64,000 nucleotides of DNA. It comes from Candidatus Latescibacterota bacterium (GTDB lineage Bacteria > Latescibacterota > UBA2968 > GCA-2709665). Numbering within the stretch: position 1 is the stretch's first letter; the number at the start of each line of letters is the position of its first letter. Below the pieces are notes generated by a model that made no database searches, had not been told where the DNA came from, and was given only the letters and a program-made list of their open reading frames with translations. This document shows, in pieces, positions 45,669 to 64,000 of the stretch. The stretch covers positions 3,488,001 to 3,552,000 of the forward strand of contig OZ220733.1 of assembly GCA_965116875.1 (NCBI GenBank), read 5' to 3'. A program made the translations under genes and the position numbers.

Positions 45669-47033
45669 GTGAAACGCGAGCATATTTTCGCCCACTACGA
45701 ACAGGACGCGACCCGGTACTGGAAGCTCAGGGAGGGCGGGTACGCCAGTCCCATGAGCGTTTTCCAGGGGGACGAAATCACATTTCATATCTCGAATTCC
45801 AGATCGTACTATGACGTGTTCGTATATCACGAAGGGGCCGGACGGCGTCTCGTAAAAGAGATACGAAATCTGCGCGGCGCGCTTCCACGGATCCCCGAGT
45901 TCGGATACCGCGACGGATTCGACTGGCCCGCGACGGTGGGATTCCGGGTGCCTGATGACTGGAAGAGCGGTGTCTACATCGCGAGTTTTCCCACCGCGCA
46001 GGGGATCCGGGAGATCCTGTTCGTCGTTCGCCCGCGGGTTCCCGCCGCGCCTGTCCTTCTCACGATAGAGACCAATACCTACGCCGCCTACAACCCGGTG
46101 GGAGGAAAAAGCCTCTTTCACTACCTGTCCACCGATCGGACCCACAGCGACCTGGTGACGTTCGAGCGGCCTCTACAGCCGGACATGATGGGCGGATTCT
46201 ACGCGTGGGACCAGTTCATCACTTCGTGGCTGGACGCCGAAGGTTATTCCGTGGACTACTGCGTCAACGCGGACCACGACCGGGAACCGGACATTCTCGA
46301 CAGCTACCCCGCACATCTCAGGATCGGCCATGGAGAGTATACCAGCCGCGAAGAGTGTGAACAGCTTCAGCGCTTCGTCGCCCGCGGCGGGAACCTGATC
46401 GTGCTGGCGGGGAACTCGTTCTCGCACCTGGTGGAGACTCGGCACAACGGACGTCAGCTCTATTGCGCCAAGACCCGGTACAAGAAGCATCCGCTGGGCA
46501 CCCCGGAGGACCCGCACACGTCCCTGCTGCGCGGAATCGACAACCTTCGCCAGCGCACCATCGGGGTCTCATATTCGGCCGCCGTCCACGCGAAGACGGC
46601 TACGCCCGGTGTGTTCATTGCGCCGACAACCGAAGAGTACGGGTTCTTCCGCGTGAGCCGCCCGGAACACTGGGCGTTCGAGGGGACCGGGTTGGCGGAA
46701 GGGGACGAATTCGGACGCGAGGACTCGATCGTGGGCGTGGAATGCGACGGCGGCGACGTCGAGTTCAGAGACGGCAAGCCATACTTCACGGGCAGCGACG
46801 GCATCAGCCCGCATTACCGGATCATCGCGATCGGTGACGCGGAAGACCACGGATTCAACGCGGACCTCGGCATTCACTACAACCGGTTCTACGCCACCAT
46901 TGCCGTGAACGAGACGGAGTTCGAGGGGACGGTCTTCACGGCGGCAACCATGGAATGGTCGCACGGACTGTACAGGAATGACGGCCCCGTGGCGCGAATC
47001 ACCCGCAACGTCCTGGATCGTCTGGGTGGATAG
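45669..47033 (+). CDS. N,N-dimethylformamidase beta-subunit-like domain protein
   Basis: EGYA..MSV..G..I.F, VP.DWKSGVY, TNTYAAYN..GG.SL, GH.EY.S, G.E.DG, GTVF.AATM.W...L. Confidence 0.75.
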   Translation: MKREHIFAHYEQDATRYWKLREGGYASPMSVFQGDEITFHISNSRSYYDVFVYHEGAGRRLVKEIRNLRGALPRIPEFGYRDGFDWPATVGFRVPDDWKSGVYIASFPTAQGIREILFVVRPRVPAAPVLLTIETNTYAAYNPVGGKSLFHYLSTDRTHSDLVTFERPLQPDMMGGFYAWDQFITSWLDAEGYSVDYCVNADHDREPDILDSYPAHLRIGHGEYTSREECEQLQRFVARGGNLIVLAGNSFSHLVETRHNGRQLYCAKTRYKKHPLGTPEDPHTSLLRGIDNLRQRTIGVSYSAAVHAKTATPGVFIAPTTEEYGFFRVSRPEHWAFEGTGLAEGDEFGREDSIVGVECDGGDVEFRDGKPYFTGSDGISPHYRIIAIGDAEDHGFNADLGIHYNRFYATIAVNETEFEGTVFTAATMEWSHGLYRNDGPVARITRNVLDRLGG

Positions 47034-47044
47034 GCGAGAGCAGT

Positions 47045-48380
47045 AGGGCAGGCCGACGAAGGATCGACTGCGGCATGGGATCATCCCCGAGCGATTTTCA
47101 CGTTTCGATACCTGAGAGGCGGCACGTCCGCCTTCTGCATTGACGGCGTCAAATGGCATTGTGACCGAACGTCGTGTGCAAAACCACACGGTAGAAATTC
47201 TCGTGAATCGTCGCGTCAACATCTAAAGTCGTTCACCAATCCTTGGACAAGTCTCCCATGGCCGGATTGGTACAACTGATCAGATTGAGCTTTTTCTGGC
47301 GGCTCCAACCCTTCAGTTGCATTTCCCGCGAAATCGCTACGTGAATATCGGATGTCTGTTCAAAGTATAACAGTCGATTCAAACCGTATTTGCGTGTGAA
47401 TCCTGCAAAGTGCTTGTGTTTGTGCTCATAGACCCGTCGTCTGAGATCATTCGTGACGCCAATATAGAGGGTTCCAGTTCGATTTGTCATAATGTAGACG
47501 AAGTATTGGTTCATGGGAGTTTTGGACTGCCCGAACTTCTGACCAGGCGTCGATATGCGCTCTTTACCCCGCTCAGAATGACATGCTGGCCTATTGCCAG
47601 GCACAACGCTTCCCGCTGTCATCCAGAGGAGGCTTGGGTGCAACGTCCAGGAAACACATCCGTTACACGTGAGACCAGAATGTCATGTAGAGAAAGCCCC
47701 AGGCCGACGAAGGATCTACTGCGGCATGGGATGATTACAAAGCGTCAGGCATTCGATCCGCCAACAAATGCAGCACAATACCGCTCCTGATTCGACTCCA
47801 CTCAGATTGACATACTTTGCAGTAATTGCTGGCGAAATCTGTCGGTCAGGTGTCGGTACAAACTGTCATCCTGGCGATGCTCGTGTGAGGGTGGGGCGGA
47901 CATTCCTGTCTGCCCTCGTCATAGCATTCTGTCGCCATGGATAAAGTTTGACGAAGCCGCCAAAATGACGAAGCGTCCGCGCACAAGTTCATCTACAAAG
48001 ACGATGAACTACACGTACAATCGAGAAGACGGGAGATTCTTCGCTGCGCTCTGAATGACACGACTTGCAAAAAAACCATCGGCGAAATGTATCTGTTAGA
48101 TCTTCGCTCCGCTCTGAATGACATGCTGACCGATCGGCAAGCACGATGCTCCCCACTGTCATCCAGAGGAGGCCTGGGTGCAACGTCCGCGAAGTGCATC
48201 GGTTTCACTGGACACCAGACTATCATCTTGGGCCGGCACCCAGGCCGACGAAGGATCTACTGCAGCATCGTATCGTCTCTGCGCGAATTGCACGTGGCGG
48301 TCCCTGAGAGGCAGCACGTCCGCCTCCACCGCGGGACGGCAGCGGCGAACGATGCTTCGACTCCGCTCAGAATGACATGC
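47045..48380. repeat. Dense cluster of palindromic REP-like repeats around the GIY-YIG gene
   Basis: caggccgacgaaggatc.actgc at ~47049, 47700, 48241; cgctc(a/t)gaatgaca at ~47569, 48045, 48110, 48364; tgtcatccagaggaggc.tgggtgcaacgtcc at ~47617 and 48157; ggtggggcggacattcctgtctgccc at ~47890. Confidence 0.8.
47233..47514 (-). CDS. Small GIY-YIG nuclease (YhbQ/UPF0213-like)
   Basis: YFVYIMTNRTGTLYIGVTNDLRRRVYEHK...FT.KY...L.YFE....AI.RE.QLKGWSR.KK..LI. Confidence 0.9.
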   Translation of the reverse strand: MNQYFVYIMTNRTGTLYIGVTNDLRRRVYEHKHKHFAGFTRKYGLNRLLYFEQTSDIHVAISREMQLKGWSRQKKLNLISCTNPAMGDLSKDW

Positions 48381-49247: not shown

Positions 49248-50093
49248 ATGATGGAGTCCTGGAGAATAATACTCTGGTTGATAACGATCGGTTTTGTGAT
49301 TATCGTCCTGGCTTTCTTGGTCGTTCCGCCGATTGTCTGGTGGGTCTATAGACGCTATATAGCTCCCCTTGAAGATCGGTATCGAACTTTCTGGCCCCGA
49401 CTGTGGGCGAGTTGGATTGATTGTGTGGTGCTATTTCCATTCGCCATTGTCTTTGGGATTCTATTTCACCCGGAAGTTGCAGGTGCATTGTGGGAAGAGG
49501 CGCGTTGGATGTTGATCGTTGTCTCTCTGATAAATCACGCATATTTGTGGTTCTATTCGATTTATATGCATGGTCGATGGGGGCGGACAGTTGGGAAAAT
49601 GACCACACGGGTCAAGGTTGTTGATGCTGTTACTGAAGAACCCATCACTTACAAGAAAGCATTCCTTCGAGACAGTGTCCCTATTCTGATTCTGTTCCCG
49701 TTAAAAATCTACTCGCTCTATCGTCTGTTAACCGGGTCAGGATACAATATACTTCAGGCAAGTTCAGATTATTCTGCGCTGGCCAATATTGTCGATTGGA
49801 CAGATTTTATCGCAGGACTCTGGTGGTTCGCCGAGATTGTCACGATGCTCACGAATGAAAAGCGACGGGCCGTACACGACTTTATCGCGGGGACGGTTGT
49901 CGTGAGAATGAATGTGGACGAAGATAACGAAAAGATTGGTGGGTGTCTTCATTACGCCAGGGAGAGTATTTACAGCACTCCGCGCGGAAACCCGACAAGA
50001 GGATTGGTGGGTCCCAATACTTATAGTGACTATCGTCGTTTTTATTCAAGGATCTTTGTTGTTTCCAAATGCTTTAGAAAAATCAGTATCTGA
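49248..50093 (+). CDS. RDD family membrane protein (C-terminus probably read-through into the next gene)
   Basis: RY.TFWPRLWA..ID, G.T.GK....VKVV, RRAVHDFIAGTVVV. Confidence 0.85.
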   Translation: MMESWRIILWLITIGFVIIVLAFLVVPPIVWWVYRRYIAPLEDRYRTFWPRLWASWIDCVVLFPFAIVFGILFHPEVAGALWEEARWMLIVVSLINHAYLWFYSIYMHGRWGRTVGKMTTRVKVVDAVTEEPITYKKAFLRDSVPILILFPLKIYSLYRLLTGSGYNILQASSDYSALANIVDWTDFIAGLWWFAEIVTMLTNEKRRAVHDFIAGTVVVRMNVDEDNEKIGGCLHYARESIYSTPRGNPTRGLVGPNTYSDYRRFYSRIFVVSKCFRKISI

Positions 50094-50607
50094 TCAACTT
50101 CAGCATATTGAAAGCATCGACAGGAAGAACTGGTCCTTGTATCTTGACAATGCCCGTTTGACGGGTTTGAATTCTGCCTATACCACATCGATTGCTGGAG
50201 CAATTGGTATTTTTCTTGTGGCTGTCATTTATTGGGTAATAATTCGTGTTATATTTCGAAGCAACGTTACTTACAAAATGGTCTTGGCAGTGACAAGTTG
50301 TAGCTTTCTCATTCAAGTCCTCGAGGCGGTGGTTACAATACCACTTGCCATGGATGCCAGGTTGACTCGAGTCCAGATCCGCCTGGGGTCATTGGTGCCC
50401 GAATCTTTAGATGGAGTTCTTTTCTTTGATTTTCTGTCCTTAATCTCGGTATTTGATCTCTGGAAATATGCACTAATGGGGTTCGGTTTGGTAATCGTAA
50501 GCGGAATTGAATCGAAAATAGCGAAGTACTGTTTATTCGTACTTTGTCTCGCCAGTGCCCTGGGTGTGGCTGGCCAGGAGTGGGGGCCGTCAATTAGATT
50601 CAAGTAA
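49912..50607 (+). CDS. Yip1-domain membrane protein
   Basis: GVFITPGRVF..L...WWVP start typical of Yip1-like proteins; about five TM segments; SVFDLW...L...GL. Confidence 0.7.
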   Translation: MWTKITKRLVGVFITPGRVFTALRAETRQEDWWVPILIVTIVVFIQGSLLFPNALEKSVSDQLQHIESIDRKNWSLYLDNARLTGLNSAYTTSIAGAIGIFLVAVIYWVIIRVIFRSNVTYKMVLAVTSCSFLIQVLEAVVTIPLAMDARLTRVQIRLGSLVPESLDGVLFFDFLSLISVFDLWKYALMGFGLVIVSGIESKIAKYCLFVLCLASALGVAGQEWGPSIRFK

Positions 50608-52123: not shown

Positions 52124-52768
52124 CTAATCTTCTTCCCCCTCGTCAATATTCGTCCTGACCACAACTGTTCCTGCGATAAAATCATGCACCGCTCGTCTCC
52201 TATCATTGGTAAGCATGGTGATGATCTCAACGAACCACCAGATCCCACGAATATATAGCGTCCAATTTGCAAGTTCATTTAATGCAGACGATCCGCGAAC
52301 CGGAGATTCAATTAGCAATAAATAAGAATTATAAATAAGCAGTGGAATGCTAAGCAATATTGGTACACAATCTCGAAGCAAGGCGTGCCGAAAGGTAATC
52401 GGTTCCTCGGTTAAAGCATTAACAACACGCACACGTGTAAACATCTTCCCCACGGTTTGACCGAAACGACCATGCAAATAAACTGAGTAGACCCACGATA
52501 TTACAGGATAACCCCAAACGATAACTATCACAGCCAGCCACAACGCCGTGTCCCAAACTGCAGGATAAAATGTCGCGAAATTTTGTGGAATATAGATCAA
52601 CACACTTAGCACCAAAGCATCAGTAATACTCGCCCATAATCGAGGCCAGAATGTCCGATACCGTTGGTCCGGATAAGCCGGGTGTTTTCTGTAGAACCAC
52701 CAGGTGATCGGCGGTATCGTAAGAAAAACCAGGACAATAATCACAATAATGACTATAAAGTCTATCAT
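52124..52768 (-). CDS. RDD family membrane protein, paralog 2
   Basis: RYRTFWPRLWAS.TD, GQTVGKM, RRAVHDFIAGTVVVR; GGAG RBS before MIDF. Confidence 0.85.
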   Translation of the reverse strand: MIDFIVIIVIIVLVFLTIPPITWWFYRKHPAYPDQRYRTFWPRLWASITDALVLSVLIYIPQNFATFYPAVWDTALWLAVIVIVWGYPVISWVYSVYLHGRFGQTVGKMFTRVRVVNALTEEPITFRHALLRDCVPILLSIPLLIYNSYLLLIESPVRGSSALNELANWTLYIRGIWWFVEIITMLTNDRRRAVHDFIAGTVVVRTNIDEGEED

Positions 52769-52996
52769 ATCAGGTTCTCTCCAGGATTCCCCTGGACTCC
52801 AATCGCCCTGGGGAATCGAATGAGGTAATTTTACCGCGTGCAGCACTGTGAGAACGTGAAATCGCAGTATCTCTGGATGCGTCTTTCGCCGGATTTGCTG
52901 ACCACAAACAGGACCTTTGAGCGAGTAGGGGTTGCTCAAGGAGCTTGATCCTGAGAACCAGGTGGTATTGAAGGACTGCCCCTGAAGTCTAACCGA

Positions 52997-53521
52997 CTAA
53001 AGGAGTTTCATGCCGAAAACCAAGGCATTGTGGAAACCGTGGGCAATGGCAGTGACCCAATAGGCCCTCCAATAACTTACCCGTTTCCAATGGACTAAAG
53101 AAAGGGCAAAAACGAAACCACATGAGATACCAACGACCCAATCCGTCATGCTTGAAGGCGGAGGCAGAATATGCATTCCAGCAAAAACGCAAAGTGACAG
53201 ATAGACCATCAGGGGAATTCTGTTGGTGACAAGCGTTACCAGTCGAATTGGGAGCCATTGGCCAACAAATGTCTCAATTAGAGGCGCAGCAATAGCCACG
53301 GTTACAAATGTCTCCAGATAACCATCTTTCATTCCATCAGTGGCATCGCCTTCTACTGCGCCTCCGATATTTTCTATAAAGCCATACCAGAAAACCGCAA
53401 CAACCATAGCTACAAGGAGTTTTAGAACGAAGAGATAACCGGTGATTACAAGTATAAACCCGGGTATTCGAAACCTTTCAAGCCACTCAATATGCCGTTC
53501 CACGAAAACGCTTAGGCTCAT
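52997..53521 (-). CDS. CPBP/CAAX-protease (Abi-like) intramembrane metalloprotease family protein
   Basis: APLIET (motif 1 variant), FAGMH, AIAHGFHNAL motifs in a multi-TM protein. Confidence 0.75.
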   Translation of the reverse strand: MSLSVFVERHIEWLERFRIPGFILVITGYLFVLKLLVAMVVAVFWYGFIENIGGAVEGDATDGMKDGYLETFVTVAIAAPLIETFVGQWLPIRLVTLVTNRIPLMVYLSLCVFAGMHILPPPSSMTDWVVGISCGFVFALSLVHWKRVSYWRAYWVTAIAHGFHNALVFGMKLL

Positions 53522-55243: not shown

Positions 55244-57574
55244 TCATTCATGTCTGAGCGTATCCGCCGGATTCGCCGTTGCGGCCTTGTAAGTCTTGCA
55301 GCTGACCGTAAGCATTACGAAAGCGAACGTCAGCACGGCCCCCGCGATGATGGGTACGTTCAGGTCAATTCGATAGACGAAATTCTGAAGCCACTCTTTG
55401 AATAAAAAGTACGCGATGGGCCCTGCAATTATGGTGGCCAAGATAACGATCTTTATGAAGTCAAAGGAAAGGAGCGTCATCAGACGCGGTACAGATGTGC
55501 CGAAGACCTTTCGGATTCCGACCTCCTTTGTTCTTTGGGCTACTGTAAAAGAGGTTAACCCAAATGAACCGAGGCAAGCTAAGCCCAACGCAAGAATTGC
55601 CGAGAATTGCACGGCAAGCAACCATTTATTTTCGTCCTTATATTGGTTCTTCAGGTCATCTTCAAGAAACCTGGCCCGAAAGGGTTGAGACGGTGCTATC
55701 TTGTGCCATTCCTTCCGCAGGATACCGAGTGTGTGCCAATCCTCCTCGGAAATCGATATAACAAACAACTTGCGACAAATCTCAGGTTCGATGAAAATGA
55801 CAGCAGGCGCAACCTGACGGTGAAAGGATCTGAAGTGAAAATCTCTTACCACGCCGATAATCGGCGCGTCGTGACCACCGTTCCAATCGACAACTTTGTC
55901 TTTTGCACTTCGCCATCCAAACTGCCTCATGAGGGCTTGATTGATAATTACGCCGTTGCGGTCGGTGGAATACAAACTGGAAAAGTCCCTTCCCTCTAAC
56001 ATTTTAAACCCGAGTGTGTTCAAAAAGCCAAAATTCACCGCGATATTCTCCACATGTTCAACCTTTCTGCCCTCAGCTTCAACAAAGCCGGCGATTGTCT
56101 GCCTATTGCTAAGTGGATGGGAACCCCTCGCAACGCCAGCTATGTTGGGATATAATGCTAAATTCCTCTCATAGACATCGACCAGGGCTGGCGAAGTTTC
56201 CAAAAGCCGCCCGATTCCGACTTCAATTACGCCGTCCGTTCGGAATCCCGGATTCTTGTTAATAAGCAGATTCAGTTGTGCGACCATTGCAACGGTGCCC
56301 ATTATTAAAACCATTGACATAGCAAACTGAAGAACAAGCAACAATCTCATCAGAAAGCCGAGATTCACGCTCTTAGGTCGAGCACAAAGGACCTCAATCG
56401 GTTGTAGACGAGACAATGCCAGGGCAGGATAAATGCCTGCAACCACGCCTATGGCCACCGTGAGAAGAAGCACATAGAGTGATGTCGAGACGTTTAAATG
56501 TCCAAATAGGCTGATTTTTCTCCCGACAAGGGCGTTAAAGCTCGGTAAGGTCGCGGCCATCAATCCGAGCGCGATGATCAATGCCATAAGCGCCAACAAG
56601 ACAGACTCAACGAGGTATAGATTGACAAGCTGATGTCTTTGCGCGCCGAAGAGTCGACGAACGCCAGCCTCCTTTGTGCGCAAGAACGCACGACCGATGG
56701 CCATTGCCGAATAGTTGACGCTCGAGATCGTAATCACAGTGACCACGATTCCGAAAAATATGTAGATGTACGCAGGATCAGTCGAGCGTTCGACTCCGAG
56801 AGTGTGTCTGTCGTTATGCATTTCTTTGAAAGGCTGCAGCAACAGGCTTATCGTACTGATTTTTTCCTGCCCCAACTTTCTATGGACGATTTTGGTCAGT
56901 CTTTCCGAGACACTACGAGGCTCCAAATAATCGGGCAAGAGCACAAATGTCGTGGCGACCAGAAATTCCCATGAATTTAGGAACCTACCTGCAGCATCGC
57001 AGGGCAGCAAACAATCGAATACTATACTGGAATTGTCTGGAAGTCTTGACACGATGCCGGTAACTGTATAGACCTCCTTTTCATTTAAGGTCAAGACCTT
57101 GCCCACCGGGTTTGCGTCTGCAAATAGCCTTGTCGCAACGTTTTCCGTAATCACTATAGAACGCGTTGCACTAAGTGCCGTTGATGGATCTCCCATCAAC
57201 ATCGGAAAAGAAAACGCCTGGAGAAATGAGGGATCGACATAACTCATGCGAACTCTCATCGATTTTTCCGCATGAGCGATAGAAGCCCTGTCTCGGTAAA
57301 CCCTTACAACCGTTGCATCCTGAAATTCATTGGCGATGGTGGGCCCGAGTGGCAATGGTGTACTGCTCATCAATTGATCCCCCGATCGAACGCAAACTCG
57401 GTAAATACGATCCACATTAAGATGGAAGAGATCGTAGGTCCATTCGCTATGCGCGAATAGGACTGCAAGTAGTGCAAAGGCCAGAGAAATCGAAAAACCA
57501 CCGATATTGGCCAATGAAACTAGCTTGTGCTTGAGAAAACTTCTGAATGCCAAAGTAATGTAATTGGGTAACAT
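55244..57574 (-). CDS. ABC transporter permease, duplicated MacB/FtsX type
   Basis: NYI.LAFRS..K.K..S..NI.G, YD.FH.N.DRIYRV, R.KE.GVR..FGA, LLVLQFAMS, IIGVV.DFHF.S, RTKEVGIRKV.G, AA.ANP...LR.E. Confidence 0.9.
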   Translation of the reverse strand: MLPNYITLAFRSFLKHKLVSLANIGGFSISLAFALLAVLFAHSEWTYDLFHLNVDRIYRVCVRSGDQLMSSTPLPLGPTIANEFQDATVVRVYRDRASIAHAEKSMRVRMSYVDPSFLQAFSFPMLMGDPSTALSATRSIVITENVATRLFADANPVGKVLTLNEKEVYTVTGIVSRLPDNSSIVFDCLLPCDAAGRFLNSWEFLVATTFVLLPDYLEPRSVSERLTKIVHRKLGQEKISTISLLLQPFKEMHNDRHTLGVERSTDPAYIYIFFGIVVTVITISSVNYSAMAIGRAFLRTKEAGVRRLFGAQRHQLVNLYLVESVLLALMALIIALGLMAATLPSFNALVGRKISLFGHLNVSTSLYVLLLTVAIGVVAGIYPALALSRLQPIEVLCARPKSVNLGFLMRLLLVLQFAMSMVLIMGTVAMVAQLNLLINKNPGFRTDGVIEVGIGRLLETSPALVDVYERNLALYPNIAGVARGSHPLSNRQTIAGFVEAEGRKVEHVENIAVNFGFLNTLGFKMLEGRDFSSLYSTDRNGVIINQALMRQFGWRSAKDKVVDWNGGHDAPIIGVVRDFHFRSFHRQVAPAVIFIEPEICRKLFVISISEEDWHTLGILRKEWHKIAPSQPFRARFLEDDLKNQYKDENKWLLAVQFSAILALGLACLGSFGLTSFTVAQRTKEVGIRKVFGTSVPRLMTLLSFDFIKIVILATIIAGPIAYFLFKEWLQNFVYRIDLNVPIIAGAVLTFAFVMLTVSCKTYKAATANPADTLRHE

Positions 57575-57833
57575 CGTCGTCAGTCAGGGCCGGTTTGCAT
57601 AGCGGTTTTGCGCCACTTTCGTTCTGTATAAGGTATAAGGCTTGCGTGTCAAGCGCAAGCCCGTGGAACGTGGCAATAGGTTGACGATGGGTTAAACTTT
57701 CCCTTCTTTCGGAGGCAAACTCGTGAACACATAATAATGTCGGGGCCTTCGAAGAAACGAAAGCCCCAAGACTGTGGTTGAGTTTGCGTTTTGCCATTGG
57801 TGGATGGTTTAAATTCGAAGCAACACCCTGAGA

Positions 57834-58127
57834 CTATGGGCCATCAGCCTCAGGCGGCTTTTCGCCACATCCGTTCCACCAAATTGTACACGGATTATTG
57901 GATATACACCAGGCGCCGAGACAATCCGCGCCCCAGCATTCAATTCTGATCGTCCAACCGCAACACTTGACTACGCAAACATGGTCGTGCGCGTACGCCG
58001 GCTGGACATAAGTCCCAAACAATGTGACAACAGCTAAGAGTGCACAAATGCACCAAGTCCAGGCCAATCCCCGTCTTGGTGACGCAGAGCCCCTTTCGTC
58101 TCTCAGAAAAGACTTAATGGCAGACAT
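57834..58127 (-). CDS. Small secreted Cys/Trp-rich peptide precursor with a Flp-pilin-like leader
   Basis: Strong AAGGAG RBS; MSAIKSFLRDERG leader, hydrophobic segment, AYA cleavage motif, 51-aa C-terminal part with 8 Cys and 5 Trp. Confidence 0.8.
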   Translation of the reverse strand: MSAIKSFLRDERGSASPRRGLAWTWCICALLAVVTLFGTYVQPAYAHDHVCVVKCCGWTIRIECWGADCLGAWCISNNPCTIWWNGCGEKPPEADGP

Positions 58128-58379
58128 CCAATCGCTCCTTTTTGTTGGAGGTTTAATGCCAGAGAATTAATCTCCATATCCGCTTCAGCTGGACCAAAGT
58201 GGATCTTACTGGCGCAGTTTGCATAAGCCCAATCAGATCCACAGAGGTTGTTTTTTATTGCTTACGGAACGGTCCAAACGCGGGGCGATCGAAATCACGA
58301 CATTTGATCCTCCTTTGTTAACTGTTGTTGTTAACTCAATTGATCTCGCCAGGACGATTCTTATAGCATCACCTCCCTT

Positions 58380-59501
58380 CTATAGGCGTGTAGCAATCCC
58401 GCCGCTCATGATTTGTACAACCAGTCGGGTTATTGCACTGCCAATATTGTCCGCTACCAGGGCAGTCAGCACTGCCCCTGCCGTAATGAATGGAACAAAC
58501 GGGATGGTACGGTCCAAAGCAATCTGCCGATCCCTGGGCAACACACCCTCGCAAGTGAGTTGATTTAGACGATTCAAGGCTTGTCTTGTGAGCGGTCGCC
58601 CTCCCTTCAAGAGCATTCGCGCGACTTCATTTCTATCATCGCGACAGTTTTCCTGCTCCTCTGATTCGAGAAATACGGATTGGCTTGGGACATTCCCCGG
58701 CTGAAGAGATGAAATTGGCACTGAATGGGTGAAGGTCGTACCGTACATGTGACGTATTTGGATATACACTAATTCCATAACCCAAACGATCGACCCCACG
58801 CCCAGATAGGTCAAGATTCCGTCGGTCGTCAAACTCAAGTAGATGACGACAACACAACCTGTCCAGACGATCAGTGACCAGTGACGGGGTTGCAGGACAA
58901 AATCAATCAAACGGTATCCAATGACCAAAACAGCAATAGCCTCCAGATAACTGATGGGACGTCTCAACACCAGAACGGTCATTCCAAGGATGATTCCAAG
59001 GAGACCGAGATATTTAGCGGCGGATCGTAAGTAGAGATCGGTACTTTTCAATCCCTTAGCCAGAATCCCGTCGTTGGTTCGTGCGAAAAACATCGAACTC
59101 AAACCATACAGGAAAAAACATACAATCGTATTAATGACCAGAGCTGAACTGGCCGTATGAAGCGAAAGCGCACTATAGCTTGGACAGAGTGTAGGGGGCA
59201 GCGCTAAAGCGGTCCCCAAAAAGAGCTTGCCGTCACCCGGTCCCCAGACCCGCGCAATTGTCATTCCTGCGCTAATGGTAAGGCTGCTGGCGATCACGCC
59301 GACCACCTGATTGGCTGTGGTGATACCGCTGATCAACATGATCCCCTGACCAGTAAGGCCGACTCCCATCAAGCCGACTGTCCACACGTTCGGTACCGTT
59401 CGGGCATAAACGTCTGATAAGCAGATATATAGACCGCCCCCAAATACTGCCGACAGCATGAGCCATTCCACCCAGAAGATTCCATCGTTCAATATGCCCA
59501 A
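58380..59501 (-). CDS. A24-family prepilin peptidase (long form with C-terminal domain)
   Basis: Catalytic Asp motifs SDVYARTVPN and WGPGDGKL; C-terminal IPFVPFI.AG; many TMs; TTG start. Confidence 0.8.
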   Translation of the reverse strand: MGILNDGIFWVEWLMLSAVFGGGLYICLSDVYARTVPNVWTVGLMGVGLTGQGIMLISGITTANQVVGVIASSLTISAGMTIARVWGPGDGKLFLGTALALPPTLCPSYSALSLHTASSALVINTIVCFFLYGLSSMFFARTNDGILAKGLKSTDLYLRSAAKYLGLLGIILGMTVLVLRRPISYLEAIAVLVIGYRLIDFVLQPRHWSLIVWTGCVVVIYLSLTTDGILTYLGVGSIVWVMELVYIQIRHMYGTTFTHSVPISSLQPGNVPSQSVFLESEEQENCRDDRNEVARMLLKGGRPLTRQALNRLNQLTCEGVLPRDRQIALDRTIPFVPFITAGAVLTALVADNIGSAITRLVVQIMSGGIATRL

Positions 59502-59519
59502 GACTTAACCCCTTAAAAT

Positions 59520-60098
59520 TCACCGCAAATTTGCGAGACGATTTACAAGCTCGAGCGCTGGTCCAAATCCGACCGCGAAATCCACAATAACCCCCGCTTC
59601 AGATATCCAATACGCGCTTGGAACGCCATTTATTTTGTAAGCGCGAAATATCTCTCCTGTCGTATCCTGCACGACTGAGAAGCGGGATGTGAATCGGGCT
59701 TCCATCTCATCAGCCTCTGGCGAATTGTCGTTCTCGGCTGTCGTCCCACGACTTACAAAAAAGAGTTGATCAACGGGCAGTTCTATTTTTGTCTCAATCA
59801 ATTCACGCTTCAAGTCCTGGGAGTATTGGCAAGTCGGCGACATAAAGACGAGTCCAAGATTACTGCCGCGTAGTTCATTAAGTTCAACTGAATCGCCGGA
59901 TCCAGTATGGAACGTAATATTGGGCGCTTCAGCTCTCCAAGGCAGCTGTTCATTATACAAAGGCTGAATAATTGAAGACTGAGGCACTCCAATGGCGCCA
60001 AGTACGATCACCGCAACCATTCCCAGGCCAATCCCCAAGGCGTGGAATCGAACCGAAGAGAGATTCGACAATTTCAGCTTCAGAGTAGTGTAATCCAT
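59520..60098 (-). CDS. Membrane-anchored thioredoxin-fold (TlpA/redoxin-like) protein with CxxS motif
   Basis: N-terminal TM, APNI.F....G..V.L..LRG, FMSPTCQYS, Y.INGVPSAY.I...G.I. Confidence 0.75.
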   Translation of the reverse strand: MDYTTLKLKLSNLSSVRFHALGIGLGMVAVIVLGAIGVPQSSIIQPLYNEQLPWRAEAPNITFHTGSGDSVELNELRGSNLGLVFMSPTCQYSQDLKRELIETKIELPVDQLFFVSRGTTAENDNSPEADEMEARFTSRFSVVQDTTGEIFRAYKINGVPSAYWISEAGVIVDFAVGFGPALELVNRLANLR

Positions 60099-60226
60099 TG
60101 ATCCGCCTATCTTTACTTGGACCGCAAAAAGAATGTCATCCAATAATGGGCAACACATTTGCGCCAAGCCAAAAGACATACCGGCTCGTACCTTGCGACC
60201 TCGGTTTCTCGTTTAAGACGAAAGGG

Positions 60227-60778
60227 CTACTTGTTGTCAACATTAAACGAAGAAAACATCCGGAAGATGTTCCCCGGTCCGGTCGTCGCCTTGAGAATGA
60301 CCCCCGCTTCATCAACAAGCAGGGCGCTCGGGACTCCGAAGATGCCCATCGACCTGAGTGATGCTCTGGTGCTGTCGTAACCCACAACTGCCGTGATTCC
60401 GTGAGCCTCTATTACCTTTCCCAGATTAGCGCGCGAGCCGATTCCCACAATCAACAATGGAATCTTCGAATCGGCATTTTGCAGGATTGGGTAAACGGAA
60501 TCGCAAGCGTCGCAATCTGTAGACGTAAAATAGAGGACGTAAGTATCGCCCCTCATTGAATCAGGTGATACATTGCCGAAATCAAGTCCACTAATCTCAA
60601 AATGCGGAACCTCTTTTCCGACTAATCCATCGAGCGGGTCGACCCGTAATCCAGGCGGATGTCCGAAAAACCTTACCCCAAGGGAAACACACAAAGCGGC
60701 AAGTATGCCACAGGTGAGGGTCATTGCCATTTTGAGGTTTCCTTCGTTGACCTTGGCGAGCGGGCTCATTGGATTCAA
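60227..60778 (-). CDS. Membrane-anchored thioredoxin-fold (TlpA/ResA-like) protein with CxxC motif
   Basis: TM anchor, G..VP.F.I, LYFTSTDCDAC, GVPSALLVD..G.I. Confidence 0.8.
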   Translation of the reverse strand: MNPMSPLAKVNEGNLKMAMTLTCGILAALCVSLGVRFFGHPPGLRVDPLDGLVGKEVPHFEISGLDFGNVSPDSMRGDTYVLYFTSTDCDACDSVYPILQNADSKIPLLIVGIGSRANLGKVIEAHGITAVVGYDSTRASLRSMGIFGVPSALLVDEAGVILKATTGPGNIFRMFSSFNVDNK

Positions 60779-60782
60779 TGCC

Positions 60783-61358
60783 TCATTCTGTCAGCTTTCT
60801 CGATCCCGAATGAATCCATTTTTCAAGTTCACGCAACTGAAGCAGAGTAGCACGGACGGAATACGTGGCTCCCGAAACGCCGTCAATATCCCCGATACCC
60901 AGGCCTGGATTCTCGAGTGATCTGCCTGAAAACTGACGCAGGAATTTCATGGGATCGTATGGACCTGCCTCCAGGTGCCATGGCTCAAGTGGCAGGATCT
61001 CCATAATCTTGTAATTGGCAGGATCAAAAAGCACACCCAGGAGAAGATCCGTGCATGTCGAGCAGACAATATCGTGCCGGACTATCGCAAGTCTACCAAC
61101 TGGCTTGTCGCCATTAGAGACCGAATAGACTGCAAGTACACCGGATCGGGGCTCAGGACGCGCGTCAAAGAAGACTCTGATTTCAATGTCTTTCCATTCG
61201 GTGCGAAGAGCTGATATGTGAGAAACCAGCGCTTTTCTCTTAGGTGGGGCAGGGAGCCCTTCTGTTGAAGTCCCGTTAGTCTGATACACAACAATCAAGG
61301 TTACGGCGACAAGTGCAAGGGTGCCAATCAGTACAGCAAGTATCGACGTTACCCTCAT
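60783..61358 (-). CDS. Membrane-anchored FMN-binding domain protein (ApbE flavinylation substrate) with CxxC
   Basis: N-terminal TM; DIDGVSGATYS flavinylation motif; VCSTC; adjacent to apbE. Confidence 0.8.
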   Translation of the reverse strand: MRVTSILAVLIGTLALVAVTLIVVYQTNGTSTEGLPAPPKRKALVSHISALRTEWKDIEIRVFFDARPEPRSGVLAVYSVSNGDKPVGRLAIVRHDIVCSTCTDLLLGVLFDPANYKIMEILPLEPWHLEAGPYDPMKFLRQFSGRSLENPGLGIGDIDGVSGATYSVRATLLQLRELEKWIHSGSRKLTE

Positions 61359-61371
61359 TTTGAGATAACCA

Positions 61372-62427
61372 TTACTTAACCTGCCCAACAGCGCCGAGAG
61401 CTGACGGAATAAGTGCAACCCTTTCAAAGCCAGACGATGTAAATATCTCTCTGTTTTTTGTAATGATAAGTGCCTCTGTATTGGGAAGGCGCTCAATTAA
61501 CTCAACTCCTTGTGCTTGCCCGAGCACCATAACCGAGGTCGCCAGCGCGTCCGCATCCATCGCTCGATCTGCGACTACCGTCGCACTCATCAATCCGCCA
61601 GCGGATACCCCCGTCCTGGGATCGACAATGTGATGAGCTTTTCGGTCAGAGAAAAAGTACTGCGTGTAGTCGCCCGAAGTCGCAATTGCTTTATTGTTGA
61701 GGTGTACGATTGCGATGCGTTCGCTTTCGCCACGAGGATCTTGGAGAGCCACTTTCCAGGGTACATTGCGGGCACGCTCTCCAATTACGCGAACGTCTCC
61801 ACCGGCGTTTACGAATGCCCGAGAAATCCCAAACTGTAACAAAACGTCAATTGCCTTATCAATGATGTAGCCTTTTGCGATTCCATCTAAGGTGACACCC
61901 ATTCCTGGCTTCTCCAACACGATCTCTTGATCATGGATCCTGATTCCTTGATACCCAACAAGCTTGAAGGCATTTTCTAATTCTTCGAATGTCGGACGTC
62001 TACGCTCGTACATGTGGCAATTGTAAAGGAGATCCAGAATAGGTTTGACGGTGATGTCGAATGCGCCATTTGAAAGAAGAGAAAATCGACGGGATTCGAT
62101 TAGAACCTCCTTAAATTCCCGTATCTTTCCAGAGATTGCCCCATTCCGGTTCAGGTGTGACAATTGACTATCGTACCGGTAGCTACTCAATAGGCGTTCA
62201 AGCCTTTCGATTTCATTATAGACTGCGTCGAAAATCACCTCTTGTTTTCCAATGACGTCGGTACTCAAGATTATGGTTACCGACGTCCCCAGGGCTGATC
62301 TTGAGACCTTAACTTGGCGACCCTGCGCTTCTGGCGTACCGAATAACAACAACGAAAGCAACACAATCGCACATGAGGTACGACTATTCAATCGAACGGT
62401 ACTTGAATTTTCCTCTATAGAGCCCAT
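61372..62427 (-). CDS. apbE: FAD:protein FMN transferase
   Basis: LGT.V.I, LS.Y..DSQLS.LN, GAFDITV.P, LDGIAKGYIID, VNAGGD, AIATSGDY..., HIVDPRTG, ADALAT. Confidence 0.95.
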   Translation of the reverse strand: MGSIEENSSTVRLNSRTSCAIVLLSLLLFGTPEAQGRQVKVSRSALGTSVTIILSTDVIGKQEVIFDAVYNEIERLERLLSSYRYDSQLSHLNRNGAISGKIREFKEVLIESRRFSLLSNGAFDITVKPILDLLYNCHMYERRRPTFEELENAFKLVGYQGIRIHDQEIVLEKPGMGVTLDGIAKGYIIDKAIDVLLQFGISRAFVNAGGDVRVIGERARNVPWKVALQDPRGESERIAIVHLNNKAIATSGDYTQYFFSDRKAHHIVDPRTGVSAGGLMSATVVADRAMDADALATSVMVLGQAQGVELIERLPNTEALIITKNREIFTSSGFERVALIPSALGAVGQVK

Positions 62428-63403
62428 CCATGCCCCTTTGGTTTTTCTTCGCGAAATACACATATCCGTCTTTATCAGCCGCCACTATGACACCGTCGAT
62501 GTTGATATCTGTACTGATGGGTTTCAATTGTCTGTCGTAGACGTCTACATATACTCGAGAGATATCTGTATACAATCCTGATTCTCTTTGTGAGTAGCAG
62601 TAATAGACGAGTGAATCGTTAGTTGCGATACTGAGAGCACTGCCTGATGAAGAGATCTGAACCATAGCAGTGTTGGCCGATCTATCGAATTCGATTCTTG
62701 TTCCAAGATTTAGTTCCGGTCGGAGTCGAGTTTTTGTCACGTTACCTTCGTTCCCAAGTGCGACCAGCTCATAGGGCGTATTTGCACCGAATATGACGCC
62801 ACCTTCCCAGGCACGGACCATGCCGCCTGAAAGACTGCCGATTATCACACGCACATCCCGGTCACTGTGGCCGAGTAGGAGTTTTGCGGATCTCTCGACA
62901 TCATAACGATACAGAACGTACCCTTCGTTAAATCCCGCAACATAAGTGGTCCCGTCATGCGTTGCGGCAACTGATGTCGGATTTGCAATTTCGGTAACGA
63001 ATTTGTCCACTACTTGACCCTTGATATCGAATATCCAAACCTTGGCTTCTTCTGCAACGTACAACATTTCTTCCTTGTCGACGGCAATCGCGCGTGGGCG
63101 CCAGGATTGTTCTTTTCCAAGCGCCTTGGGCCTGATCACCGCGGCGTTGTTCGCTCGTGTGGAAACGCGAAAGACCTGACCACTCACTTTATCGCAGATA
63201 TACAGAGTTCCTCCGCGCCCCATCGCAACATCAGTAATTCTCATCGATCCTCGATTAGGCACGGCCTCGAGATTGATTTCCGACACTTCTAGAAATTCAC
63301 TTGCACTTGCTGAACCGTTTGTCCAGCAGCCACATAGTAGAATCATAGTCCACATAATCGGGACATAAGAGGAGCTTCTCAAGACCGAATTGGACAAATC
63401 CAT
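62384..63403 (-). CDS. Secreted 6-bladed beta-propeller (NHL-like) protein, possible lipoprotein
   Basis: Signal/possible lipobox LLCGC; ITDVA....GTLYICD, PRAIAVD.E.MLYVA, PTSVA...DGTTYVA repeats. Confidence 0.7.
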   Translation of the reverse strand: MDLSNSVLRSSSYVPIMWTMILLCGCWTNGSASASEFLEVSEINLEAVPNRGSMRITDVAMGRGGTLYICDKVSGQVFRVSTRANNAAVIRPKALGKEQSWRPRAIAVDKEEMLYVAEEAKVWIFDIKGQVVDKFVTEIANPTSVAATHDGTTYVAGFNEGYVLYRYDVERSAKLLLGHSDRDVRVIIGSLSGGMVRAWEGGVIFGANTPYELVALGNEGNVTKTRLRPELNLGTRIEFDRSANTAMVQISSSGSALSIATNDSLVYYCYSQRESGLYTDISRVYVDVYDRQLKPISTDINIDGVIVAADKDGYVYFAKKNQRGMDGLYRGKFKYRSIE

Positions 63404-63547
63404 TCTGCAATTGCCTCCGTCAAATCTGACCTAAATTGACCCGAACCTTTCGGATTCCGACAACACACAATTTCTGCGAAACCGTTTCCTCCTCGCCCAA
63501 CCGAACCTTCAGCATACCTCTGTTATTTCAACTCAGTCACTTCCTGT

Positions 63548-63949
63548 TCAGGCTTTCCTAATATTTCGCTTTCGATATTCCACCGGGGAAACGCCATGTA
63601 TCCGTCTGAACGCTTCGTAAAGGCGTTTTGACGAACGGAACCCACATTCGGCCGCGACTTCCTTCATAGACATTTGCGTTTCGGTGATCAGTCGTTCAGC
63701 CCGAGCGATCCTGATCTCTCTCAGTTTTTCCAGAAATGGCATTCCAAGATGTTGCTTGAACAGCCTGCAACCGTATGACCGCGAGAATCGCATTTTACGC
63801 ATGGCGTCATTGAAACTCAGGTCCGGGTTGCTGTAATTTGCCTCCAGAAACGACTCCAACCATGTCTTCCAAGGACTCTGTGAATTCGGAGACGTGCATG
63901 ATGTCTCCTGTATTTCCTCGTGCTGTTTCGCGTTATCCAATTTTCCCAC
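63548..63949 (-). CDS. AraC-family helix-turn-helix transcriptional regulator (stand-alone DNA-binding domain)
   Basis: NY.NPDLS, SRSY..RLFKQ..G, RI.RA..L..T..S.KEVA.ECGF.S...F.R..GVSP.EYRK; start uncertain near the window edge. Confidence 0.85.
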   Translation of the reverse strand: MGKLDNAKQHEEIQETSCTSPNSQSPWKTWLESFLEANYSNPDLSFNDAMRKMRFSRSYGCRLFKQHLGMPFLEKLREIRIARAERLITETQMSMKEVAAECGFRSSKRLYEAFRRIHGVSPVEYRKRNIRKA

Positions 63950-64000
63950 AAGTTCAAATTCGAGCGGTTCTTCTGTCAGATCGAGCGGCGCGGCTGGAGT

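Follow-up and report, generated by a model that had tools for sequence, protein, structure and literature searches.

A putative mobile cassette of Latescibacterota that combines a class-III-like leader and an A24 peptidase with a thiol-redox module

The genome of a Candidatus Latescibacterota bacterium (GCA_965116875.1), a single contig of 5.45 Mb with a completeness of 97.7%, contains a cluster of nine open reading frames (ORFs), in which a small cysteine-rich peptide is encoded next to a peptidase of the A24 (GxGD) family, two thioredoxin-like proteins, TrxC and TrxS, and an RnfG/NqrC-like protein, which is predicted to carry flavin mononucleotide (FMN). The cluster lies at the end of a stretch of 64,000 nucleotides (contig OZ220733.1, positions 3,488,001 to 3,552,000), which is referred to as the window, and its features are listed in Table 1. 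With some reserve, the cluster is best read as a mobile cassette for an exported mini-protein with four disulfide bonds, in which a class-III-like leader would be removed by a dedicated, filament-independent A24 peptidase and a relay of thioredoxins and a flavoprotein would manage the thiols. The cassette has probably been acquired horizontally, and its product is probably bacteriocin-like.

In the proposed pathway, the hydrophobic helix of the precursor would insert into the membrane with its N-terminus inside and its C-terminus outside, and the adjoining peptidase would cut the leader after Gly13 at the cytoplasmic face. The two membrane-anchored TlpA-like thioredoxins would fold the core in the periplasm and exchange electrons with the RnfG-like protein, which possesses a CxxC motif and would receive its FMN from ApbE. 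Two further steps are proposed more tentatively: signal peptidase I might cut at the AYA sequence at the end of the helix, thereby freeing the core, and the FtsX/MacB-type permease may serve either for export of the product or, as a pump conferring immunity, for protection of the producer. An earlier interpretation of the same DNA, made from the letters and termed here the sequence-only reading, had already suggested that an A24 enzyme serves as leader peptidase for the cysteine-rich precursor, that the thioredoxins and the flavoprotein act on its thiols and that no pilus is involved. These parts are in line with the comparative evidence described below; the A24 cut that it envisaged is probably not the only one. 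The genes with their motifs, the contrast between a conserved leader and a variable core, the strict clustering of peptidase, precursor and thioredoxins, the failure to find type IV filament genes in the genome and the relationship to Hxs-type cassettes are observed, whereas the steps of the pathway are inferred.

The precursor gene is preceded by the sequence AAGGAG, located 7 nt upstream of its ATG. A leader profile built from Latescibacterota loci retrieved 35 leader-bearing frames in 23 loci, with one to four small ORFs per precursor-bearing locus. The sequence-only reading had predicted that leaders of the FLxDExG type, followed by variable cysteine-rich cores, would be found beside such peptidases, and this was borne out in the 23 loci. 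Phenylalanine, glycine (six residues on) and tryptophan columns are invariant in 20 of 20 aligned precursors. Among the 29 frames that fit the strict motif, on which the following counts are based (six other frames lack it and were excluded), a serine precedes the leader glycine in 24, and the position before this serine is occupied by glutamate in 19 and by serine in 10 frames. The spacing between the glycine and the tryptophan is 12 residues in 24 of the 29 precursors, and an A-x-A sequence follows the hydrophobic stretch in the same number; therefore, the A24 cut is probably not the sole processing step. For the window precursor, the AYA at the end of the helix would be the corresponding site of the signal peptidase I type. 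A twin-arginine translocation signal was considered and dismissed, because the twin arginine is not a conserved feature and occurs in no precursors other than the two closest. In two precursors, the x-S-E-S-G motif of the leader is doubled in tandem before the helix (L045:9062-9448, L046:9147-9539).

Leader and core differ strongly in their conservation. The cores comprise 36 to 56 residues, and 19 of 28 short cores contain eight cysteines. Eight groups of orthologues or paralogues were compared, and in each of them the leader identity exceeds the core identity (mean leader/core identities in per cent: 82/41, 87/53, 97/54, 100/38, 100/80, 75/47, 61/30 and 77/26), and the cores are hypervariable. 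The precursor of the window and that of G006, a genome of the same genus, share 82% identity in the leader and 41% in the core; two copies within one genome have identical leaders (100%) and cores with 38% identity. Tandem precursors also occur, with three in G039 and four at one locus of G132. This leader also stands at the start of larger proteins in genus g25, which comprise 260 to 340 amino acids with cysteine-rich repeats and a C-terminal FlgD_ig domain or a domain of the type IX secretion system (T9SS) type, Por_Secre_tail (e.g., L056:7878-8717, L057:12310-13341). The T9SS-type tails on these substrates imply that release from the membrane is required. In the genome studied here, the 97-amino-acid ORF adjoining the A24 gene is the sole frame that matches the leader profile. 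An Atlas search with the peptide returned no usable match.

The peptidase of the cluster is the only Peptidase_A24 match in the genome scan. Its catalytic D30 and the G-x-G-D90 motif are invariant in 17 sequences with identities down to 25%, and the extended motifs D-x3-R-x-V-P-N and G-P-G-D-G-K are invariant in four close homologues; the homologue of G039 scores 27.5 bits with PF01478. The best match of the AlphaFold model (pLDDT 71) in the PDB is the archaeal peptidase FlaK (3s0x_B), with a probability of 0.99, a target TM score of 0.52 and a weak E value of 0.35. A profile search of 1.84 billion representatives yielded 2055 matches at E<=1e-3, of which 698 reach E<=1e-10 and 71 reach E<=1e-30. 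Most matches are 350 to 385 amino acids long and align from end to end. Peptidase_A24 is combined with Arc_PepC in eight of the 12 distant clade members that were scanned. Database names are absent or uninformative: two of the 16 closest proteins are called 'hypothetical protein', and the sole label among ten clusters gives no clue to a function. Likewise, no NCBIfam match was found among 13 clade members (the window protein at E up to 0.01, 12 remote ones at E up to 1e-5). One distant member (P0087, 785 amino acids) carries an N-terminally fused glycosyltransferase of family 4 (GT4). The view that the A24 gene encodes a dedicated leader peptidase for the adjoining precursor is partly supported, and it fits the comparative evidence.

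Homologues of the peptidase are present in three of 40 near relatives and, across the phylum, in 32 of 168 genomes. They are concentrated in family f4 (28/76), with single or few occurrences in f1 (1/21) and f2 (2/31) and none in the 39 genomes of eleven other families, and up to five copies are found per genome. All nine genes of the cluster recur in G006, with 56 to 84% identity. In G039 and G033, the FMN-like protein is retained along with the peptidase, the two thioredoxins and one or more small ORFs; all four close loci hold the whole core. Twenty wider f4 loci were probed with the window proteins by phmmer (E<=1e-4). Precursor ORFs are present in 18 of these; TrxC was detected in 17 and TrxS in 16 loci, both in 15 and at least one in 18. 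The FMN-like gene was found in 11 of the 20 loci and in 15 of 24 overall. At two loci, L042 and L044, the peptidase stands alone without partners. The conserved core thus consists of the peptidase, one or more precursors and one or two TlpA-like thioredoxins, and ApbE, the propeller, the AraC regulator and the permease are peripheral to this module. The sequence-only reading had treated the nine genes as one pathway unit; this view was abandoned, as the four peripheral genes were found, with the window proteins as queries, in the closest loci only.

Insertion sequence (IS) elements interrupt or flank several copies of the cassette. In G039, a transposase of the Mutator family splits the second thioredoxin gene (L008:8115-9434), and in G006 an IstB fragment is located between precursor and permease (L007:7162-7695). 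G101 carries four near-identical peptidase copies (L041-L044), two of which are without partners, and transposase genes are found beside L041, the locus scanned. At the loci of G039 and G033, a GT4 glycosyltransferase takes the place of ApbE (g6; L008:5463-6674, L009:14083-15327). The modification genes of the loci are otherwise restricted to thiol-redox functions, and if disulfides were the only modification, the product would be a bacteriocin-like protein rather than a peptide that is made by ribosomes and modified after translation (RiPP) under the strict definition. The GT4 genes beside or fused to A24 genes hint at glycosylation as an alternative or added modification. Two other gene families accompany the wider loci. 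Adjoining f4 precursor genes, an unnamed secreted family of about 300 to 340 amino acids was observed, whose members (L041:10484-11452, L047:7756-8700 and 5071-5973, L054:10862-11875, L051:6935-7822) share 28 to 61% mutual identity and have no Pfam match at E<=1e-5. In genus g25, genes for proteins of about 700 amino acids with FG-GAP and FlgD_ig domains take turns with those of precursors; sigma-54 activators that have Reg_prop sensors are encoded nearby.

The motif C-x-[AGS]-C is present in 20 of 22 TrxC homologues. The 22 TrxS frames are divided between C-x-[YF]-S, found in eight including that of the window, and C-x-Y-C, found in 12; of the remaining two, one has no match and the other is a motif-less half of the IS-split gene. 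In the FMN-like protein, R-H-D-I-x-C-x-x-C-x-D and D-G-x-[ST]-G-A-T are each invariant in 15 of 15 homologues. The Pfam FMN_bind profile gives these proteins 16.8 to 21.1 bits against a cutoff of 22 (16.8 bits for the window protein). The AlphaFold 2 model of the FMN-like protein (pLDDT 81.8) has its best PDB match in RnfG (7zc6_G, E value 1.2e-4, probability 1.0), followed by further RnfG chains and NqrC, and the protein possesses an N-terminal hydrophobic helix. RnfG and NqrC are covalently flavinylated single-anchor subunits of the Rnf and Nqr complexes. ApbE was found in all five genomes checked: the genome studied here has two copies, one of which lies in the cluster, and G039, G033 and G101 have none in the cluster and one copy each elsewhere in the genome. 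Profile scans of the genome gave no match for DsbB or VKOR and a single match for DsbD_TM. Together, TrxC, TrxS and the RnfG-like CxxC/FMN protein are predicted to form a flavin-linked thiol-disulfide relay, which in the simplest reading would run in the oxidising direction, from the thiols of the peptide via the thioredoxin CxxC, the CxxC of the flavoprotein and FMN to an acceptor. In eukaryotic flavin sulfhydryl oxidases, a similar relay leads from a thioredoxin CxxC via a second CxxC and the flavin to an acceptor. Contigs of an RNA library (run X7) with 90 to 96% likeness to the window cover 59109-59626, 59747-59957 and 60234-60517, and one of them bridges the junction between the TrxS and peptidase genes. 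A contig from a DNA run of the same sample covers 58333-61383 and diverges from the window on the precursor side. The X7 contigs are a weak hint that the module is expressed in a relative. No conclusion follows from the lack of RNA cover over the peptide, the permease, ApbE, the propeller, AraC, most of the peptidase gene and the FMN-like gene.

The distant members of the peptidase clade occur in a different setting. The metagenome scan was carried out with a 7-row peptidase alignment, since a 22-row alignment was too diverse and a single-protein query found nothing, and 80 loci of distant members were fetched, many of which are just 1 to 3 kb long. Neither thioredoxin nor FMN-like genes were detected by profile in these 80 loci. 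Many of them carry a small ORF whose leader closely resembles that of the cassette, with basic residues, the motif F-L-x-x-E-E-G and a hydrophobic stretch, and all 15 such ORFs examined match the NCBIfam models HxsA3/HxsA4, two of them above the curated cutoff; three contain Hint domains. These Hint/intein-like domains are found instead of His-Xaa-Ser repeats behind the Hxs-type leader (L077:4443-5504, L101:13377-14234, L112:3721-5031). Twelve distant loci were scanned. In 11 of these, HxsD, a radical SAM maturase of the HxsB type (above the curated cutoff in eight) and a leader-bearing HxsA3/4-like ORF come after the peptidase gene, and the twelfth encodes HxsC4-like enzymes. Examples of this gene order among L061-L140 are L067:7393-10880 and L070:8001-12085. 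With home-made profiles, HxsB-like genes were detected in 28, HxsD-like genes in 30 and leader ORFs in 24 of the 80 loci. Some contigs of the distant clade carry archaeal markers (RNase P component 3), others bacterial ones (Lnt, MepM-like).

The leader alignments of the cassette and of the Hxs-type systems are in register (hhalign probability 91%, E value 1.1e-6). In a maximum-likelihood tree of 85 full-length peptidases, obtained by a quick search, unrooted and with composition bias flagged, the 25 thioredoxin-linked ones fall on one side of a branch with an SH-aLRT support of 100%. The cassette shares its leader-peptidase logic, and apparently its ancestry, with Hxs-type cassettes: both combine a peptidase of the same clade, one or more maturases and a variable precursor with a homologous leader. 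However, the cluster lacks HxsB, HxsC and HxsD, its core lacks His-Xaa-Ser repeats, and the maturation proteins it encodes are a flavoprotein and thioredoxins. In 24 Latescibacterota loci, the window included, nothing matched the profiles of HxsB and HxsD, no HxsB exceeded the cutoff in the genome, and none of five Latescibacterota precursors matched any HxsA model at E up to 0.1, whereas all 15 remote precursors did. Because distant peptidases and a homologous leader occur in Hxs cassettes, the cassette is regarded as a redox variant of a wider, pilus-independent system of leaders and leader peptidases. It is assigned neither to the Flp pilin family nor to Hxs, since the defining features of these families were looked for and are absent from it. 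The sequence-only reading had considered the combination undescribed. This needs correction in that the combination has some kin: members of the same peptidase clade and a homologous leader occur in the radical SAM cassettes with HxsA3 or HxsA4.

Since A24 peptidases normally serve filaments, and since the leader F-L-x-D-E-x-G followed by a hydrophobic helix is Flp-like, the 97-amino-acid protein might be a minor pilin or pseudopilin of a Tad or type IV filament encoded elsewhere. The sequence-only reading had described a pilus-free setting for the window, and this now extends to its surroundings and to the genome as a whole: no pilus genes, which that reading had named as a finding that would speak against it, lie beyond the window end (15 ORFs scanned), and the genome contains no T2SSE over the cutoff (the best hit, 19.2 bits, lies inside a 1080-amino-acid frame), no T2SSF and no Flp_Fap, with secretin not searched for. 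Controls for the pilus Pfam searches were positive in 12 to 13 of 14 reference genomes, that for Flp_Fap in Caulobacter only. The precursors have no Flp_Fap match at E up to 1 and no conserved Glu/Tyr at +5/+6, and they carry an A-x-A site and a disulfide-rich globular core behind the helix. As the genome has a single A24 gene and no T2SSE, T2SSF or Flp_Fap was found in it, a role as pilin is very unlikely. A more serious competitor is ordinary secretion, in which residues 1 to 46 would be nothing but a long signal peptide for Sec, with AYA as the place where signal peptidase I cuts. Another role would then fall to the A24-like protein, such as clearing the remnant signal peptide in the manner of a signal-peptide peptidase or acting as a scaffold, and the thioredoxins would still fold the core. 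The A-x-A sites, the basic n-region and the typical h-region agree with this explanation, large T9SS-tailed substrates must become soluble, and GxGD proteases include signal-peptide peptidases. However, an F-x5-G motif that stays invariant, with Ser/Glu at -1 to -3, over loci whose peptidases are as little as 25% identical is not a feature of normal signal peptides, and F-x5-G fits the cut-site logic of class III leaders. Moreover, the same pairing of leader and peptidase recurs in Hxs-type cassettes, and the genome pairs one A24 gene with one leader-bearing ORF. This explanation is therefore considered unlikely, although far less so than a pilin.

About equally improbable is an effector that resides in the envelope, in analogy to the antiphage HXS system: the cut cysteine-rich domain would remain anchored or periplasmic and guard against phages or toxins instead of leaving the cell as a bacteriocin. 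The peptidase clade and leader common to both kinds of cassette, the variable hot spot described below and the hypervariable cores would suit such a role, and the canonical HxsABCD is described, in the available part of its account, as a system against phages whose effector is periplasmic (PMC13128918). In the same part of that account, the words 'peptidase' and 'prepilin' do not occur (PMC13128918). In addition, PADLOC gave no match among the 18 proteins of the genomic island, the cargos of sister genomes at this site resemble peptide export and immunity cassettes rather than known defence systems, and some substrates bear secretion tails. Hardly any weight is given to the idea that the peptide is the small subunit of a propeller enzyme, similar to methylamine or quinohemoprotein amine dehydrogenase, in which a cross-linked Cys/Trp peptide would sit in the propeller and be processed by a MauD-like maturase. 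A propeller gene is part of the cluster, propeller-type proteins are encoded near precursors at other loci, the core contains six tryptophans and eight cysteines, and there are weak NCBIfam matches to MauD and QhpR, far under their cutoffs. The window propeller, however, is not conserved together with the module, the cluster is devoid of genes for MauG, radical SAM or haem proteins, and cores that are hypervariable even between tandem copies fit poorly to a catalytic subunit. The filament-independent leader peptidase with its redox relay is the preferred explanation, and several observations weigh against it. The window peptidase scores 26.3 bits with PF01478 in hmmscan, just under the cutoff of 26.5 bits, and is thus borderline (28.2 bits, over the cutoff, in the six-frame genome scan), and at +5, 16 of the 29 precursors carry Arg and just four carry Glu, unlike Flp or type IV pilins. 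Given the A-x-A site in 24 of these precursors, the ordinary route via Sec and signal peptidase I could suffice, which would leave the A24 cut unexplained. At nine of the 20 wider f4 loci the FMN-like gene was not found with the window query, and the propeller, ApbE, AraC and permease queries found nothing at any of the 20. Neither a donor nor an acceptor of electrons for the flavoprotein is encoded in the cluster, which leaves the relay without a fixed direction, and TlpA-like proteins are usually reductants. Furthermore, no ORF for an ATPase adjoins the permease gene in the ORF list of the window, and the hint of expression is only weak because RNA libraries can contain DNA.

The nine ORFs fill positions 55244-64258, with the last one reaching past the window end (Table 1). 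All of them are present on the minus strand where the sequence-only reading had placed them, and its family assignments, which were checked with Pfam (hmmscan) and NCBIfam profiles, proved right with some reservations regarding the scores: none of the nine proteins reached a curated NCBIfam cutoff, and for the 97-amino-acid peptide and the FMN-like protein no family was found in Pfam or NCBIfam. The stem-loops at the end of the precursor gene are noted for their position only, because the number of terminator-like sites in the region, as counted by a promoter/terminator scan, was not above that of shuffled sequences.

Table 1. Features of the cluster in window coordinates.
Feature	Position	Strand	Remarks
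AraC-family regulator	63548-64000 in the window, to window-equivalent 64258 (236 amino acids in full)	-	HTH_18 E 6e-22, HTH_AraC
Beta-propeller, six-bladed, NHL/DUF5128-like	62384-63403 (339 amino acids)	-	Pfam SGL sub-threshold
ApbE FAD:protein FMN transferase	61372-62463	-	PF02424 E 1e-75
RnfG/NqrC-like FMN-binding protein, membrane-anchored	60783-61358 likely (listed ORF 60783-61496), 191 amino acids	-	
TlpA/ResA-like thioredoxin (TrxC), membrane-anchored	60227-60778	-	CDAC; AhpC-TSA 37.1 and Redoxin 30.8 bits, both over cutoff
Thioredoxin-like protein (TrxS), membrane-anchored	59520-60179	-	monothiol CQYS; AhpC-TSA 24.9 bits vs cutoff 26
Long A24 (GxGD) aspartyl peptidase, proposed leader peptidase	58380-59501 (373 amino acids)	-	extra helices, Arc_PepC-like C-terminal domain
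Cysteine-rich precursor ORF (97 amino acids)	57834-58127	-	10 Cys, 8 within the last 51 residues
Precursor leader, residues 1-13	58089-58127	-	Flp-like, F7-x5-G13, ends at invariant Gly13
Precursor hydrophobic helix, residues 14-46	57990-58088	-	invariant Trp25; ends in AYA
Precursor core, residues 47-97	57837-57989	-	51 amino acids, 8 Cys, 6 Trp
Two long stem-loops (10 and 12 pairs), at or just past the precursor stop codon	57740-57854	-	
Duplicated MacB_PCD+FtsX permease, ADOP-like (776 amino acids)	55244-57574	-	two MacB_PCD and two FtsX stretches (Pfam)

The guanine-plus-cytosine (GC) content of the cluster is 0.488 compared to 0.596 for the genome, and just 0.4% of the 9-kb windows of the genome are equally low. 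The low-GC block that had been claimed for the cluster is thus real; it extends from about 48000 to 64258 and so does not begin at 55244. Past the AraC gene, divergently oriented genes of sugar metabolism follow (15 ORFs scanned). The island is flanked on one side by a DMFA2_C gene (45669-47033) and on the other, past the window end, by a DAO gene (L002:1788-3023), and no tRNA was found at its borders. This site is a variable hot spot. The gap between the two genes spans 17.8 kb here, is empty (33 to 55 bp) in G011, G013, G002, G001 and G007, and spans 3 to 16 kb in seven others; in G006 and G004 it could not be resolved. Among the hot-spot genomes of the genus, the A24 gene is additionally present only in G006. 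The alternative cargos likewise have a low GC content (0.48-0.52) and contain AraC homologues beside peptide-export genes, which suggests that the site collects cassettes for secreted peptides of the bacteriocin type. The cargo of G014 encodes an ATP-binding cassette (ABC) exporter with a C39 peptidase and two cyclic-nucleotide-binding (cNMP-binding) domains together with HlyD, those of G012 and G008 an ABC exporter and HlyD, and Rce1-like membrane proteases are encoded in the cargos of G014, G012 and G009. A homologous FtsX permease without the peptide module is present in the cargo of G009. Since homologues of the AraC regulator and the permease occur at the site in sister genomes that lack the module, both would belong to the wider context of the site and not to the A24 module.

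The rest of the island encodes a GIY-YIG nuclease-domain protein, two membrane proteins of the RDD family, a Yip1-domain protein and a membrane protein of 174 amino acids without a family (window positions 47233-47643, 49248-50093, 49912-50607, 52124-52939 and 52997-53521), and pieces of it recur among the cargos of sister genomes. The 174-amino-acid ORF (52997-53521) was considered as an Rce1-like immunity protein; the idea was dropped, as Pfam gave no match for the ORF and BLAST showed no resemblance between it and the Rce1-like genes in cargos of sister genomes. Other cargo of the hot spot (L141-L146) includes tetratricopeptide repeat proteins and IS elements. Among the peripheral genes of the cluster, the permease is conserved in G006 and G039, and G033 is without it. 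Its NCBIfam scores remain under the cutoffs (TIGR03434, 251 bits versus 622; DarB, 122 bits). The propeller protein has an N-terminal signal-like segment, and its look-alikes in the Atlas are clusters of six-bladed NHL/DUF5128 proteins (score 0.94); G006 and G039 have the whole gene, whereas in G033 a fragment is left.

The cassette shares features with several known systems. As in the Flp/Tad prepilins and their peptidases TadV/CpaA, an F-L-x-D/S-E-x-G leader precedes a hydrophobic helix, and an A24 enzyme with both aspartate motifs is encoded next to it. In contrast to these, searches of this genome detected neither an assembly ATPase nor a platform protein or Flp_Fap, the peptidase is twice as long and carries an Arc_PepC-like domain, and the substrate has an AxA site, a disulfide-rich core and no Glu/Tyr at +5/+6. 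The archaeal enzymes PibD, FlaK and EppA also possess an A24 core with an extra C-terminal domain (matches to Arc_PepC/Arc_PepC_II), and FlaK is the best fold match; however, the host is a bacterium and the partners are a redox module instead of a filament or bindosome ATPase. Non-pilin substrates of archaeal class III peptidases are known, although they are not known to include small cysteine-rich peptides. The bacteriocins of the double-glycine type with C39 ABC transporters and the sublancin operon with BdbA/BdbB resemble the cassette in the conserved leader, the variable core, the dedicated thioredoxin-like genes, the exporter-type membrane protein and the location in a mobile hot spot, where the sister cargos encode ABC exporters, HlyD and Rce1-like proteins, one of them with C39. 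They differ in that the leader of the cassette belongs to another family, that an A24 GxGD enzyme replaces the C39 cysteine protease, that a CxxC protein, predicted to be flavinylated, is added, and that the permease is of the FtsX/MacB type without an adjoining ATPase. MauD and MauA provide a further parallel, in which a membrane-anchored thioredoxin-like protein acts on a small secreted polypeptide with several disulfides and a propeller gene is nearby, but the MauD score here is 22 bits versus a cutoff of 189, the cores are hypervariable and genes for MauG or tryptophan tryptophylquinone formation are absent.

Hybrid clusters in which ApbE is encoded together with DUF3570, thioredoxin-like and DUF4266 proteins, with or without DsbD, have been described in the available part of a survey by Meheust et al. 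(2021, PMC8238504). They share with the present cluster the combination of ApbE, an extracytosolic flavinylated protein and thioredoxin-like proteins, whereas the predicted carrier in the present cluster is an RnfG-like FMN_bind protein with a CxxC motif instead of DUF3570, and no DsbD is encoded in the cluster. The available text of the survey links no peptidase or precursor peptide to these clusters; 'peptidase' occurs in it once, in the title of a reference (PMC8238504). The literature searches found no paper that ties an A24 peptidase to the maturation of cysteine-rich peptides.

In textbooks, prepilin peptidases serve type IV filaments. Three features are each unexpected: the family of the peptidase, the absence of detectable filament genes and the CxxC protein with its predicted flavin. 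The most far-reaching reading consists of two linked claims and is rather unlikely. The A24 clade with Arc_PepC, which comprises 698 members at E<=1e-10, would represent a third, filament-independent class III route, with its members acting as general leader peptidases for matured envelope or secreted effectors and the Hxs-type and redox cassettes as two of its branches. The RnfG-like protein and the two thioredoxins would form a self-contained machine that generates disulfides in the periplasm, comparable to a flavin sulfhydryl oxidase of eukaryotes split into separate bacterial proteins, and would serve a genome without a detected DsbB or VKOR. The findings point to a large A24 clade that works without filaments, its members acting as leader peptidases for matured peptides, which would widen the known uses of class III signal peptides. 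The invariant CxxC motif on a predicted flavinylated RnfG-like protein next to two thioredoxins leads to the testable hypothesis that bacteria have a periplasmic disulfide relay which is driven by flavin and differs from DsbB and VKOR. The F-x5-G leader beside a long A24 gene provides a handle for genome mining, which could reveal hidden families of disulfide-rich mini-proteins in uncultured marine phyla, and the hypervariable cores of 36 to 56 residues, mostly with eight cysteines, would offer a ready library of knotted scaffolds for bioactivity screens.

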